Part shown: one piece after another, positions 4,029 through 28,718 of the stretch
Layout of the letters: each line of letters begins with the position of its first letter
How positions within the stretch are numbered: position 1 is the first letter of the stretch
DNA from: Minisyncoccota bacterium
Lineage (GTDB): Bacteria; Patescibacteriota; Minisyncoccia; Phycocordibacterales; UBA1006
NCBI GenBank assembly: GCA_028697455.1
Contig: JAQVEZ010000002.1
Coordinates: forward strand, 89,921 to 153,920
DNA length: 64,000 nt
Reading direction: 5' to 3'
The notes under the pieces: generated by a model
The model's input: only the letters and a program-made list of their open reading frames with translations
The model's database searches: none
What the model was told of the DNA's origin: nothing
Translations under genes and position numbers: made by a program

Positions 4029-4109
4029 AACAATAGTAACTAAGGTTTAATAATAATATGCACCTTATACTATAGAAAAAAGAAAAAGAATCAAGTGTCT
4101 TTTAATCAA

Positions 4110-4165
4110 AAAAATTATCCACAGACTTATACACGTTTTACAATTTTTGTCTTTTTTTCCACATA
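4110..4165. promoter_or_regulatory. DnaA-box cluster upstream of dnaA (oriC part 1 / dnaA autoregulation)
   Basis: TTATCCACA 4115-4123, TTATACACG 4127-4135, TTTTCCACA 4155-4163. Confidence 0.75.
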
Positions 4166-4201
4166 TGAGATTCTCTAGTATAATAAGAAAGTAATTGCTC
4201 T

Positions 4202-5554
4202 ATGAATACTATTGATAAAATCTGGAAAAACATTCTAACAGAAATAGAACTCGAAATATCAAAACCTAATTTTAATACTTGGTTCAAAAAAACCTTCGCT
4301 CTCAATAAAGAAGGTGGTGTTTTTATCATTGGTGTTCCTAACGAGTTTAATAAGGAGTGGCTTCATAGTAAGTTTCACGAAATGATCCTCGAAAAACTTC
4401 AAAAATACGATGAAGGAATAAATTCAATAGAATATAGGGTTAAAAAACAAAATCTCGAGAAGAAACCTGCTCCTTTTGAAGAAGAGGGGAAGAAAAATTC
4501 AGGAAGAACACTTCCTTTTGAAATGAACACGGTAAACAAGGAAACGGGATTAAACGAAAAGTATTCGTTCCATTCGTTCGTTGTAGGACCCTTTAATGAA
4601 CTCGCTTACTCAGCGGCTCAAGCTATTATAAAGAAACCAGGAGTATATAATCCTCTCTTCATCTATGGATCAACAGGATTGGGGAAAACTCATCTTATTC
4701 AAGCAACAGGTAACAAAATAGCTCAGGATTATGAAAATTTAAAGATTTTTTATACGAGTTCAGAAAAATTTTCTCAAGATTACGTAAACGCTCTCAAAAA
4801 CAACTCAATAAACGCCTTCAAAAACAAATACCGAAGTTATGACCTCCTTATTATGGATGATATTCAATTCTTTTCAGGAAAAGAAAAACTTCAAGAAGAA
4901 CTCTTTCATTTGTTCAATATTCTTTATGATAAAGAAAAACAAATAATCTTTTCATCTGATAAACACCCAAATTATATTATTGGGCTTGAAGATAGATTAC
5001 GGTCTCGATTTTCTGCAGGGATGATTGTTGATATAACCAAACCCGATTACGAATCAAGATCTGCCCTCCTTAAAACAAAAGCAAGTCAAAGAAAGATACC
5101 TATTAATGAAGACGTTGTAGATTTCTTGGCATCAAATCTTGATGGAAATATTCGTGACCTCGAAGGAATCCTTAATTCTATTAATATTCAAACAGAATTA
5201 AAACAAAAGAAACTTTCAATTCAGGATGTTAAAGCTCTTATAAAAAATAATATAAAACCCAAAAAACATCTTGCAGTGGATGAGATTATAAAAATAGTTT
5301 CTGAATTCTATAATACTGAGACAGAAAAGATATACGACAAAACAAGAAAAAAAGAAGTTGTATATGTAAGACAAATTATTATGTATATCCTAAGAGAATT
5401 CTTTAATGTCTCATATCCAACAATTGGGAAAGAAATTGGTGGAAGAGATCATACGACCGTTATTCATTCATACGAAAGGGTAAAAGAATTTATGAAAGAA
5501 GATCCAAACATTGTTCAAGAAATAGATCAATTAAAAGCAATCCTTGATGTGTAA
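4202..5554 (+). CDS. dnaA: Chromosomal replication initiator DnaA
   Basis: YNPLFIYGSTGLGKTHL, LLIMDDIQF, RLRSRF, GGRDHTTVIHS. Confidence 0.98.
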   Translation: MNTIDKIWKNILTEIELEISKPNFNTWFKKTFALNKEGGVFIIGVPNEFNKEWLHSKFHEMILEKLQKYDEGINSIEYRVKKQNLEKKPAPFEEEGKKNSGRTLPFEMNTVNKETGLNEKYSFHSFVVGPFNELAYSAAQAIIKKPGVYNPLFIYGSTGLGKTHLIQATGNKIAQDYENLKIFYTSSEKFSQDYVNALKNNSINAFKNKYRSYDLLIMDDIQFFSGKEKLQEELFHLFNILYDKEKQIIFSSDKHPNYIIGLEDRLRSRFSAGMIVDITKPDYESRSALLKTKASQRKIPINEDVVDFLASNLDGNIRDLEGILNSINIQTELKQKKLSIQDVKALIKNNIKPKKHLAVDEIIKIVSEFYNTETEKIYDKTRKKEVVYVRQIIMYILREFFNVSYPTIGKEIGGRDHTTVIHSYERVKEFMKEDPNIVQEIDQLKAILDV

Positions 5555-27116: not shown

Positions 27117-27800
27117 ATGTTGTATCTTTTTTTTGGAAATAAAAATAAAATAAAAAAAGAAACCGAGAGTCTTCTTCAGTCACGAACTGTTGATGTGTAT
27201 CATTTGTACGAAGAGGATTTTGTAGAGAAATCTTTTTTTGAGCTGACGTCTTTTCAGAAAGGACTTTTTGATGATACCAAGGTGTATATTATTCACGAAG
27301 CTTCTTCTCATGTTCCTCTCAAAAAAATTCTTCCCGAGTGTGCATCTTCTGAGAATATTTTTATTTTTTCAGAAGAAAAAGCCCCCAAAGCTACTCGAGA
27401 ATTGTTTGAAAAAAACAATGGAGAGATTAAGGATTTTTCAGAAAAAATCTTGCAAAAGAAAAATGAAGCTTTCAATATTTTTTCTCTTACTGATCTTTTG
27501 GGAAGGAGAGACAAAAAGGCTTTGTGGCTTTCTTTCCAAGAAGCAAAAAAAGAAAGTAGTCCAGAAGAAATTCATGGCGTCTTGTGGTGGGGACTTAAAA
27601 ATCTTTTTCTTGTAAAATCCTCTCCTACAAAAAATCCAGGAATGAGCCCCTATGTATATCAAAAGAATCTTAGTTTTGCAAAAAATTTTGAAGAGAAAGA
27701 ACTTCTTTCTCTTGCGGACACGCTCGTTCGTATGTTCCACGAGAGAGATTCGGTAAGTTCTCTTGAAATAGAGCTTGAGAAATTTATCTTAAATATATAA
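27117..27800 (+). CDS. Probable DNA polymerase III delta subunit (HolA-like, divergent)
   Basis: MLYLFFG start, FNIFSLTD...RDKK..W, PYVYQK, C-terminal LEKFIL. Confidence 0.6.
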   Translation: MLYLFFGNKNKIKKETESLLQSRTVDVYHLYEEDFVEKSFFELTSFQKGLFDDTKVYIIHEASSHVPLKKILPECASSENIFIFSEEKAPKATRELFEKNNGEIKDFSEKILQKKNEAFNIFSLTDLLGRRDKKALWLSFQEAKKESSPEEIHGVLWWGLKNLFLVKSSPTKNPGMSPYVYQKNLSFAKNFEEKELLSLADTLVRMFHERDSVSSLEIELEKFILNI

Positions 27801-27837
27801 AAACCAAACAATTCTCATTGTTTGGTTTTTATAGTAT

Positions 27838-27913
27838 TGGTCCCCCCGGTAGGGATCGAACCTACGACCGTCAGCTTAAAAGGCTGCTGCTCTACCAGCT
27901 GAGCTACAGGGGG
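27838..27913 (-). tRNA. tRNA-Lys(TTT)
   Basis: CCCCCTG TA GCTC AGCTGGTA GAGC A GCAGC CTTTTAA GCTGA CGGTC GTAGG TTCGATC CCTAC CGGGGGG A CCA; 76-nt cloverleaf. Confidence 0.96.
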
Positions 27914-27962
27914 AGATGTATACTCTATTTATTTAAAGTATTTTGTTACATTGTGCTCATTC

Positions 27963-28037
27963 AGCAGCCTTTTCTTAAAAGGCGTTCGGCGTGCCGTTAA
28001 GGCACCCCTCACCTCCACCAGCTGAGCTACAGGGGGA
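27963..28037 (-). repeat. tRNA-Lys-derived repeat, copy 1 (TTT-type loop)
   Basis: tRNA 5' end and D-arm, 29-nt insert, GCCTTTTAAG, then AAAAGGCTGCT; no T-arm or CCA. Confidence 0.85.
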
Positions 28038-28085
28038 GATGAATGTTATGTATCCCTCAAAAATTTTATTTCAAAATTCTCACGA

Positions 28086-28160
28086 AGCAGCCTTTTCTTA
28101 AGAGGTGTTCGGCGTGCCGTTAAGGCACCCCTCACCTCTACCGACTGAGCTACAGGGGGA
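28086..28160 (-). repeat. tRNA-Lys-derived repeat, copy 2 (CTT-type loop)
   Basis: About 5 mismatches in 75 nt versus copy 1; exactly 123 nt away. Confidence 0.85.
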
Positions 28161-28175
28161 TATCTAACAAGAATC

Positions 28176-28204
28176 ACTATAGAAAAAAAAGACAAGAAAG
28201 TCAA
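28176..28204 (-). promoter_or_regulatory. Sigma70 promoter for the repeat/tRNA-Lys transcript
   Basis: TTGACT-17 nt-TATAGT on the minus strand. Confidence 0.7.
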
Positions 28205-28247
28205 TAAAAATCTTTTGTTTTGTATTCGCTGTGATAGTATTCGCCTT

Positions 28248-28718
28248 ATGAAGACATCTTTGTGGCTCCACAATATTCGAAGTGCCTATAATGTTGGTTC
28301 TCTTTTTCGAACAGCTGATGCTGTTGGAATCCAGCACATCTATCTTTCTGGCTATACACCACTCCCAATTGATCGCTTCGGACGTTATCGTTCTGATATT
28401 GCCAAAACGGCTTTGGGTTCAGAAAAAACACTTTCATGGTCACAACTTAAAAATATTCCAAAAGATATTCTTGAGCTCAAAAGTAGGGGGAATTTTTTTG
28501 TTTGCGTAGAGCAGGATAAAAAATCAATCGATATTTTTGAAGCAAGACTCCCGCAAGGAAAAGATATTATTCTTGCTGTTGGCGAAGAAACACGTGGTTT
28601 TGAGCCAGAGCTTCTTGGGCTTGCAGATATGATTGTCGAAATTCCTATGCGTGGCAAAAAAGAATCTCTTAACGTCACGGTTGCTTTTGGAATTGCTGCT
28701 TATACCTTATTAAAATAA
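28248..28718 (+). CDS. TrmH/SpoU family RNA methyltransferase
   Basis: HNIRSAYNVGSLFRTAD, GEETRG, IPMRGKKESLNV. Confidence 0.9.
   Translation: MKTSLWLHNIRSAYNVGSLFRTADAVGIQHIYLSGYTPLPIDRFGRYRSDIAKTALGSEKTLSWSQLKNIPKDILELKSRGNFFVCVEQDKKSIDIFEARLPQGKDIILAVGEETRGFEPELLGLADMIVEIPMRGKKESLNVTVAFGIAAYTLLK

Follow-up and report, generated by a model that had tools for sequence, protein, structure and literature searches.

We have analysed a window of 64,000 nucleotides belonging to contig C2 of a 531-kb, 96%-complete genome (G000); the sequencing runs containing this DNA come from sludge, digester, bioreactor and landfill metagenomes. At the tRNA-Lys(UUU) locus the minus strand carries, in this order, a promoter-like site, a distal unit (28159–28037), a proximal unit (28036–27914), the intact tRNA gene with its CCA encoded (27838–27913; detected by ARAGORN and scoring 66.9 bits against Rfam RF00005) and a 17-bp perfect inverted repeat (27796–27833, from the inverted-repeat search), which is terminator-like and lies between the tRNA and a convergent gene. 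The latter is probably holA; in L061, L063 and L065 the gene downstream of tRNA-Lys matches DNA_pol3_delta_C, the window counterpart having no Pfam match. On the other side lies a divergent SpoU-family RNA methyltransferase gene (28215–28718, plus strand), which adjoins the tRNA in cassette-free relatives also and stands outside the element.

Structure of the array

The first-pass annotation had described a tRNA 5' end recurring upstream of the gene, and it does recur, at 28036 and 28159 with a period of 123 nt. Each 123-nt unit consists of tRNA nt 1–24, a 29-nt hairpin, tRNA nt 30–39, an 11–12-nt inverted copy of tRNA nt 36 to 25/26 and a 48-nt spacer, all on the minus strand. In the proximal unit, the stub (28013–28036) is identical to the tRNA at 23 of 24 positions, the difference being A21G, and is followed by the hairpin with its tandem G·A pairs (27984–28012), nt 30–39 with a UUU anticodon loop devoid of a stem partner (27974–27983), the 12-nt inverted copy of nt 36 to 25 of the uninterrupted tRNA (27962–27973) and an AT-rich spacer with the tRNA leader at its end (27914–27961). 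The distal unit comprises a stub identical at 22/24 positions (28136–28159), the same hairpin without a single change (28107–28135), nt 30–39 with a CUU anticodon loop (28097–28106), an 11-nt inverted copy of nt 36 to 26 (28086–28096) and its own 48-nt spacer (28037–28084). The D-loop of the distal stub is that of the tRNA-Lys(CUU) of the same genome and of the tRNA-Lys(UUU) of L005 and L009, and two changes in the distal nt 30–39 perfect a 7-bp stem with nt 21–24 and the foot of the hairpin.

Several of the initial descriptions of these units have had to be adjusted. The 29-nt piece had been taken for an insert, and a hairpin-forming piece is indeed there, but nothing has been simply inserted, as nt 25–29 are replaced and the tRNA resumes at nt 30. 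The first 75 positions differ at six sites (16, 17, 21, 54, 58 and 75; none in the hairpin) instead of about five, and the spacers, credited earlier with a match at only about half of positions, agree at 28 of 48 positions against 15 in shuffles (p ~1e-4) and are thus diverged homologues. The selection on the repeat deduced from that contrast is plausible for the hairpin, which covaries among relatives (see below), but gene conversion explains the conservation of the stub equally well. A proposed pairing of AGGGG with the 5' CCCCT is absent from the minimum-energy folds of single 75-nt units and is not conserved in relatives. The presence of both Lys anticodons holds for the window, but in strain X14 the two copies are apparently identical over 27963–28015 (deduced from a collapsed 53-nt piece). 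Finally, the sigma-70-type promoter-like site TTGACT-17-TATAGT does exist (28204–28176, promoter scan) and relatives have it at the same position whether or not they carry the cassette, but by itself it is not significant (2 sites per 800 nt against 1.5 expected). In the tRNA-Lys leaders of L002, L003, L005, L006, L009 and L018 the -10 box is followed by a small hairpin and a T-run, an attenuator-like arrangement.

The 29-mer occurs exactly twice in the window (0 expected from 100 shuffles). Neither blastn of the region nor the covariance model found a third unit in the genome, the model giving only these two full-length matches. The 123-nt units contain no ORF, Rfam matches no family to them (above the gathering score it reports only tRNA), and the array is absent from the output of Tandem Repeats Finder. 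An intron or split tRNA was rejected, because the units lack nt 25–29 and 40–76 and removal of the hairpin cannot restore a tRNA; both Lys tRNAs exist intact, tRNA-Lys(CUU) being located, as had been asked, elsewhere in the genome (contig C1). A T-box leader was discarded as well (no T-box antiterminator motif and no Rfam match), as was a CRISPR, TIGR or type III antitoxin array (homologous spacers, and a SpoU methyltransferase and a holA-like gene as neighbours).

Misassembly, which would have disposed of the array altogether, is rejected. Contigs from two further studies (X2 from P2; X8 and X10 from P5) carry the unique junction between the copies (27986–28136) letter for letter, with 0 differences, and the diverged strains X6, X7, X14 and X17 keep most of it with up to 6 differences. 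In X1 the contig of the middle piece is about twice as deep as its flanks, and in X10 and X17 about half as deep, which hints at variation in copy number.

A cassette family in the Paceibacterales

Among 40 relatives searched at the DNA level, 4 genomes have this layout but with hairpins that differ, and with sequence patterns and two covariance models we have extended it to a family within the order Paceibacterales that comprises 44 copies at 28 loci, in tandems of one to three, with 35 distinct hairpins (duplicates and loci L043, L066 and L084 are left out of the 28-locus set). Rows dropped as chance or unrelated matches were 5 of 10 in the GTDB scan (L048–L050, L053, L054) and 2 of 12 in the metagenome scan (L057, L059); the order scan lost 3 of 10 genomes (an ordinary tRNA-Thr, an intron-bearing tRNA-Asn and a tRNA-less site) and the family scan lost G070. 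The covariance-model genome searches scored 37–104 candidates per genome, so that their counts are to be read as "at least". Presence is patchy, with 9 of 55 genomes of the family positive and others scattered over further families of the order, and the Lys pattern was found in 7 of 401 genomes of the order. A search of limited sensitivity in 150 phylum-wide genomes gave no full-length match.

Similar arrays at other tRNAs, which the first-pass annotation had suggested looking for, are therefore real: the cassettes lie at tRNA-Lys(UUU, CUU), tRNA-Thr(UGU, CGU) and tRNA-Asn(GUU). A restriction to tRNAs with U36 is only hinted at, because the earlier searches were biased to tRNA-Lys. An anticodon-blind pattern gave 45 matches against ~38 in a reversed control; 36 loci were inspected, and 14 matches in 10 genomes were hairpins at tRNA-Lys or tRNA-Thr (one match, in G321, lay outside the inspected set). 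At L202 a cassette of the right shape has no tRNA nearby.

This breadth of targets bears on the proposal, also made at first, that the units act as decoys for anticodon nucleases, that is, as a decoy or inhibitor RNA array comparable to type III antitoxin repeats. It is true that the tandem repeats keep the Lys anticodon loop, with both Lys anticodons in the window, and that tRNA-Lys is a known target of anticodon nucleases. However, the family occurs at tRNA-Thr and tRNA-Asn too, the units are unable to form an anticodon stem and their loop is paired in the predicted folds, none of the adjacent genes is a toxin gene, and this 96%-complete genome has no match to an AAA_13 (PrrC/RloC-type) protein. 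We consider such a decoy very improbable.

Cassettes are found upstream of the tRNA at 26 loci, downstream at 8 and on both sides at 6. Upstream copies consist of stub, hairpin, anticodon loop and inverted copy, and downstream ones of a partial D-arm, the hairpin and most of the 3' half, devoid of an inverted part and in some cases head-to-tail (84-nt units in L118, 96-nt units in L117). Copy number varies, being 1 versus 2 in L056/L041 and 3 in L065. The hairpin follows G24, which is partly a product of the search patterns, and the tRNA resumes at nt 30 in 26 of the 35 hairpins and at nt 29 in the remaining 9. The A21G change appears in 8 of 9 distinct downstream hairpins.

The hairpins are 23–30 nt long and all 12 stem pairs show changes on both sides. 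Covariation reaches 0.59 in a MAFFT alignment (at most 0.26 in slid controls) and 0.70 in a model-fitted one (at most 0.21), values to be read with the caveat that palindrome correction can mimic compensatory change. Of the cells in the outer eight pairs, 218 are Watson-Crick, 51 are G·A, 6 are G·T and 1 is A·C; tandem G·A occurs in 25/35 hairpins and GGG in the loop region in 18/35. The sense strand is the more stable one in 28/35 with RNA energies and in 30/35 with DNA energies and, being favoured under both sets, it fits RNA and single-stranded DNA alike. For 13 of the 35 the nearest neighbour is at another isotype; the window hairpin has a similarity of 0.79 to L083, a tRNA-Thr copy of the same genus, and Lys–Thr pairs reach 0.89 (L007 and L163) and 0.93 (L055 and L201). 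In 21 of 26 loci, on the other hand, the acceptor strand of the stub agrees with the local tRNA at 7/7 positions; with tRNAs from other loci of that isotype the figure is 21%. A hairpin module that keeps its identity while taking local flanks has, we infer, the look of a mobile element. In L201 (G321 C1, ~5830) the T-arm and acceptor strand of the downstream copy behind tRNA-Thr(CGU) resemble the tRNA-Thr(CGU) of L112 and not the local gene, so this copy appears to preserve an older or foreign allele.

The match between the units and the anticodon arm, reported as antisense from the start, is in the proximal unit a 12-nt perfect inverted repeat (27962–27973 versus 27878–27889 of the tRNA). Among 29 distinct upstream copies the inverted copy beats all 30 shuffles in 23 and matches the cognate tRNA better than all other-isotype tRNAs in 25. 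It includes nt 25–29, which the stub lacks, and thus its template was the uninterrupted gene. Its register ranges from 18–33 to 33–43, and its mismatches (6 G·U-type, 7 A·C-type and 4 other) have no G·U bias and so give no sign of selection for RNA pairing. Together with the spacer of L181, which is a 37-nt duplicate of the tRNA leader, we read the unit as a direct duplication plus a short inverted segment, probably generated by template switching. An inverted target copy is also present in the 3'-end inserts at tRNA genes of the window genome.

A different account is that the units are a functional leader or small RNA, co-transcribed with tRNA-Lys, which tunes its maturation or acts as a tRNA sponge, either by pairing with the anticodon arm or through capture of the 3' acceptor strand by the stub. 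The units do sit between a promoter-like site and the tRNA, strains ~94–97% identical in the flanks keep the array, the hairpin is strand-specific with its frequent tandem G·A, and the inverted copy tracks the cognate tRNA, with which it is predicted to pair better (-18.7 kcal/mol) than with the anticodon copy of its own unit (-8.3 kcal/mol). The distal unit also folds with z = -4.7. In the precursor the cloverleaf would cost 5–11 kcal/mol, but the same program misfolds the lone tRNA, giving no cloverleaf even there, and for this reason the precursor energies count for little. Against a leader RNA stand also the varying register and the near equality of G·U-type and A·C-type mismatches, stems that are almost purely Watson-Crick (218 cells against 6 G·T), a strand preference that is the same with DNA energies, downstream copies with no inverted part, a patchy presence with most congeners having none, and the lack of any Rfam family or T-box motif in the units. 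The tRNA-maturation regulator of the first-pass annotation is left without positive support; the inverted copy is missing or at chance in 6 of the 29 upstream copies and the cassettes are patchy and lie also downstream of tRNAs. We regard a leader RNA as unlikely; such an RNA might also have arisen when a selfish cassette was later domesticated.

Seven other tRNA genes viewed in the window genome carry partial copies with inserts, upstream of tRNA-Gln(UUG), tRNA-Arg(GCG), tRNA-Ser(GCU) and tRNA-Ile(UAU) and downstream of tRNA-Tyr, tRNA-Leu(CAA), tRNA-Arg(UCG) and tRNA-Ser(GCU), which makes a tRNA-Lys-specific regulator less parsimonious than a general process at tRNA genes. At tRNA-Gln(UUG) (C1, ~144800–145140, minus strand) there are two tandem units of ~170 nt, each with a 5' stub through the D-arm, a ~27-nt hairpin at the same junction and further hairpins, a parallel type of cassette. 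Other 5' stub cassettes are those of tRNA-Arg(GCG) (C2, 760–925, 96-nt units), tRNA-Ser(GCU) (C4, 26264–26440) and tRNA-Ile(UAU) (C4, 29580–29740), the last two with a short GC-rich palindrome as in the GIY-YIG cassettes described below. In L006, L015, L023, L025, L039, L041, L044 and L113, inverted copies of the T-arm and acceptor end lie downstream of tRNA genes with a conserved module after them, a mirror image of the upstream cassette.

In viral contigs the exact 18-nt hairpin core has no match, and blastn against phages and plasmids found none. A looser pattern picked up one phage tRNA-Lys with a different insert; another pattern gave two matches, at places with no tRNAs, which were taken as chance. 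A 116-kb viral contig (L068:2494–2592) has a tRNA-Lys(UUU) that is complete, its acceptor, anticodon and T stems being entire, but that contains a ~26-nt insert after nt 24; it seems to be an intron-like or extra-arm tRNA of a phage.

Small GIY-YIG nucleases at tRNA genes

The 82 selected ORFs at cassette loci gave no transposase, integrase or reverse transcriptase match, and their one nuclease match is a deliberately included GIY-YIG gene beside tmRNA. This small gene is located, in the window genome, between smpB and tmRNA (L069:1501–1794, contig C4); L228 carries one at the same position, and L244 has one upstream of tmRNA. Among 20 genomes examined, a stub, a GIY-YIG ORF and an intact tRNA follow one another in L224, L233, L234 and L247. 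With the L247 protein as query against 331 genomes, 17 of the best 30 loci consisted of a 5' tRNA stub, an ORF and an intact tRNA (as classified by a script), the tRNAs being Asn, Lys, Val, Ser, Leu, Tyr and Gln, mostly with a GC-rich hairpin splitting the stub. At tRNA-Lys, the loci L263, L264 and L285 carry stub 1–23, a 16-nt hairpin, the anticodon loop, the ORF, the leader and the intact gene, which is the layout of the window with the ORF standing in the place of the inverted copy and spacer. Their ORFs belong to an 85-aa class (the candidate nucleases have 80–90 aa and a single domain), and ORF-less copies lie beside such cassettes, downstream in L285 and upstream in L259. Six aligned GIY-YIG proteins share invariant Tyr, Gly, Arg, His and Glu, which we take to be the residues expected for GIY-YIG catalysis.

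The tRNA-Lys GIY-YIG cassettes have another hairpin, and their junction is 23|32 as against 24|30 in the window family. Model R2 recovered no window-family hairpin joined to an ORF from 66 nuclease or transposase loci; L262 has only a degenerate look-alike behind its ORF. Of the 15 cassette-positive genomes tested, four (G012, G013, G089 and G246) yielded no small GIY-YIG gene, and 2 of 5 cassette-negative genomes did yield one. The L264 nuclease has no relative in viral contigs. A link to RAYT/Y1 transposases was dropped (4 of 9 positive versus 11 of 46 other genomes of the family, and none in G000), and no reverse transcriptase was found in this 96%-complete genome.

Another account is that the units are scars of neutral repair and have no mobiliser of their own. 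Template-switch duplications would result from breaks in tRNA genes or from forks stalled there, and an existing palindrome would spread among non-essential stubs by gene conversion and natural transformation via the shared D-arm. No mobility gene appears among the 82 selected ORFs, neither Y1 transposase nor reverse transcriptase was found in the window genome, and a direct duplication with an inverted segment resembles template switching. Yet neutral scars leave unexplained the narrow range of hairpin lengths, the retention of tandem G·A, the presence of A21G in nearly all downstream hairpins and the same layout around intact GIY-YIG genes, and we find them quite improbable.

A few further inserts deserve mention. 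A small GIY-YIG ORF lies in a hairpin-bounded insert in sequence that, judged by eye, resembles 23S rRNA (L300, G179 C60, ~4063–4266). In L117 (1200–1420), L224, L234 and L280 a short CCTGCC-type palindrome occupies the D-loop of the stub, in places nested repeatedly. Long inserts that are probably group I introns break the anticodon loop of the tRNA-Asn and tRNA-Pro(GGG) genes of L038, L109, L110, L255 and L261, and two of these loci also have an upstream GIY-YIG stub cassette.

Possible origin and relation to known systems

From the comparison of sequences we favour, with a probability of roughly 0.55, the reading that the units are ORF-less, non-autonomous members of a selfish, tRNA-targeted, homing-like cassette family, probably moved by tiny GIY-YIG nucleases. 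Of the three options first put forward (a maturation regulator, a decoy, or scars of a small element inserting repeatedly) the last is the best supported, but the site is the D-arm/anticodon-stem junction (24|29–30) and not the anticodon loop. A single-domain GIY-YIG nuclease acting in trans would cut the tRNA gene near this junction, and a donor hairpin would be copied in during repair, guided by homology in the D-arm at its left end and by microhomology in the anticodon loop at its right; what is observed of this step is the hairpin after G24 and the tRNA resuming at nt 29 or 30. Synthesis would then switch template to an uninterrupted allele, producing the inverted 36-to-25 copy, and restart in the leader so that the intact gene is rebuilt. 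Here the observed part is that the inverted copy has the nt 25–29 missing from the stub and that the L181 spacer duplicates the leader. Simple homing leaves unexplained that an intact target persists beside the cassette. The hairpin may be the recognised structure, a shield of the stub from re-cutting, or both, and recognition or protection of this kind would lead to a covarying stem. Unequal recombination may account for the one to three copies seen, and gene conversion for stubs that stay like the local tRNA.

The nearest known counterparts include homing endonucleases. According to the available portions of the sources (PMC2330249; PMC13096335), SegB of T-even phages is a free-standing GIY-YIG homing endonuclease among tRNA genes, which recognises a conserved tRNA motif (the T-loop) and drives homing and tandem amplification of tRNA-bearing segments. 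The likeness lies in a GIY-YIG nuclease acting on tRNA genes, here a candidate; the differences, as far as those portions go, are a bacterial chromosome, single-domain candidates of 80–90 aa, a site at the D-arm/anticodon-stem junction and ORF-less units in the window. The fungal mitochondrial mORFs (Glomus and Allomyces atp6) create "gene hybrids" in essential genes, with one gene end duplicated and a working gene plus a displaced end left behind, although their targets are protein genes whose 3' end is replaced; stubs split by a hairpin, inverted copies of the target and tandem derivatives lacking an ORF are not described in the portion of that paper at hand (PMC3630166). In our array a displaced gene end (stub 1–24) stands beside a restored gene and the endonuclease ORF is absent. 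It would thus seem to work most like a non-autonomous derivative of a homing-endonuclease cassette and, because the units have no ORF, to fall outside the SegB/mORF class.

Integrated islands provide another precedent. In the part of the Islander sources available (PMC4383910; PMC9897764), partial tRNAs lie beside restored genes in direct orientation and tandem arrays occur, and the arrangement with a displaced 5' fragment upstream of the restored gene is known from 159 of 3919 islands (PMC4383910). The units could on this ground be attL/attR remnants of an integrase island in the anticodon loop of tRNA-Lys with the 5' half restored, or a decoy att site, and the downstream copies resemble 3'-fragment scars. 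But set against such islands, as that part portrays them, the array lacks both integrase and cargo, and its fragment, which a hairpin divides, is followed by an inverted copy of the target. The split, at nt 24|30, coincides with none of the anticodon-loop, T-loop and acceptor subsites, the interval measures just ~100 nt, the one tyrosine recombinase match of the genome is ~55 kb away, and no large island with this hairpin at its end was seen in scans that included GTDB genomes and viral contigs. An integrase remnant has, in our opinion, hardly any likelihood.

With REP/REPIN elements, as described in the accessible text of PMC8266576 and PMC3733652, the hairpins share a short imperfect palindrome, GTAG or GTGG near its foot, CT 3' of it, unpaired G·A in some stems and the lack of an ORF, but this likeness is superficial. 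GTAG, GTGG or GGAG stands 2 nt before the hairpin in 34 of 35 cases; here, however, the tetramer is the D-loop of the tRNA itself and was part of the search pattern, and there are 1–3 copies per genome, only at tRNA genes, with neither a cognate Y1 transposase nor many dispersed copies. REPs are mobilised with RAYT (TnpA-REP) HUH transposases, and Y1 transposases are not linked to the cassettes. In the REP guide rule, as given in the available text of PMC8266576, GTGG selects CC and GTAG selects CT; the rule does not hold here, and the GTGG copies in L042, L061, L063 and L065 have no CC after the hairpin.

The array is a real, structured element, and apparently an undescribed one; the full-text literature, with most subscription journals outside its coverage, yielded no description of such cassettes. 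What is new here is the hairpin family and its 24|29–30 site, its occurrence at several tRNA types and, at tRNA-Lys, the twins that bear an ORF. In a bolder version, which we hold to be speculative and doubtful, the Paceibacterales would harbour an undescribed selfish system in which GIY-YIG nucleases and interchangeable hairpins retarget tRNA types, rebuild the gene and write an antisense copy, some cassettes, this pair among them, having become domesticated leader switches that would determine the level of an essential tRNA. If the cassette reading that we favour is right, a minimal parasite of tRNA genes lives in reduced genomes in which almost no mobile DNA is thought to exist, and it has both gene-less forms of 80–130 nt and an autonomous form encoding an 80–90-aa nuclease. 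It would permit direct tests of site finding by a single-domain GIY-YIG nuclease and of the way in which insertion rebuilds an essential gene, and would account for partial tRNA repeats that are easily mistaken for att scars or small RNAs. A different kind of tRNA-Lys duplication is seen in L162 (G096 C7, 15100–16000), where tandem 5' duplications extend into the T-loop and carry a different insert.
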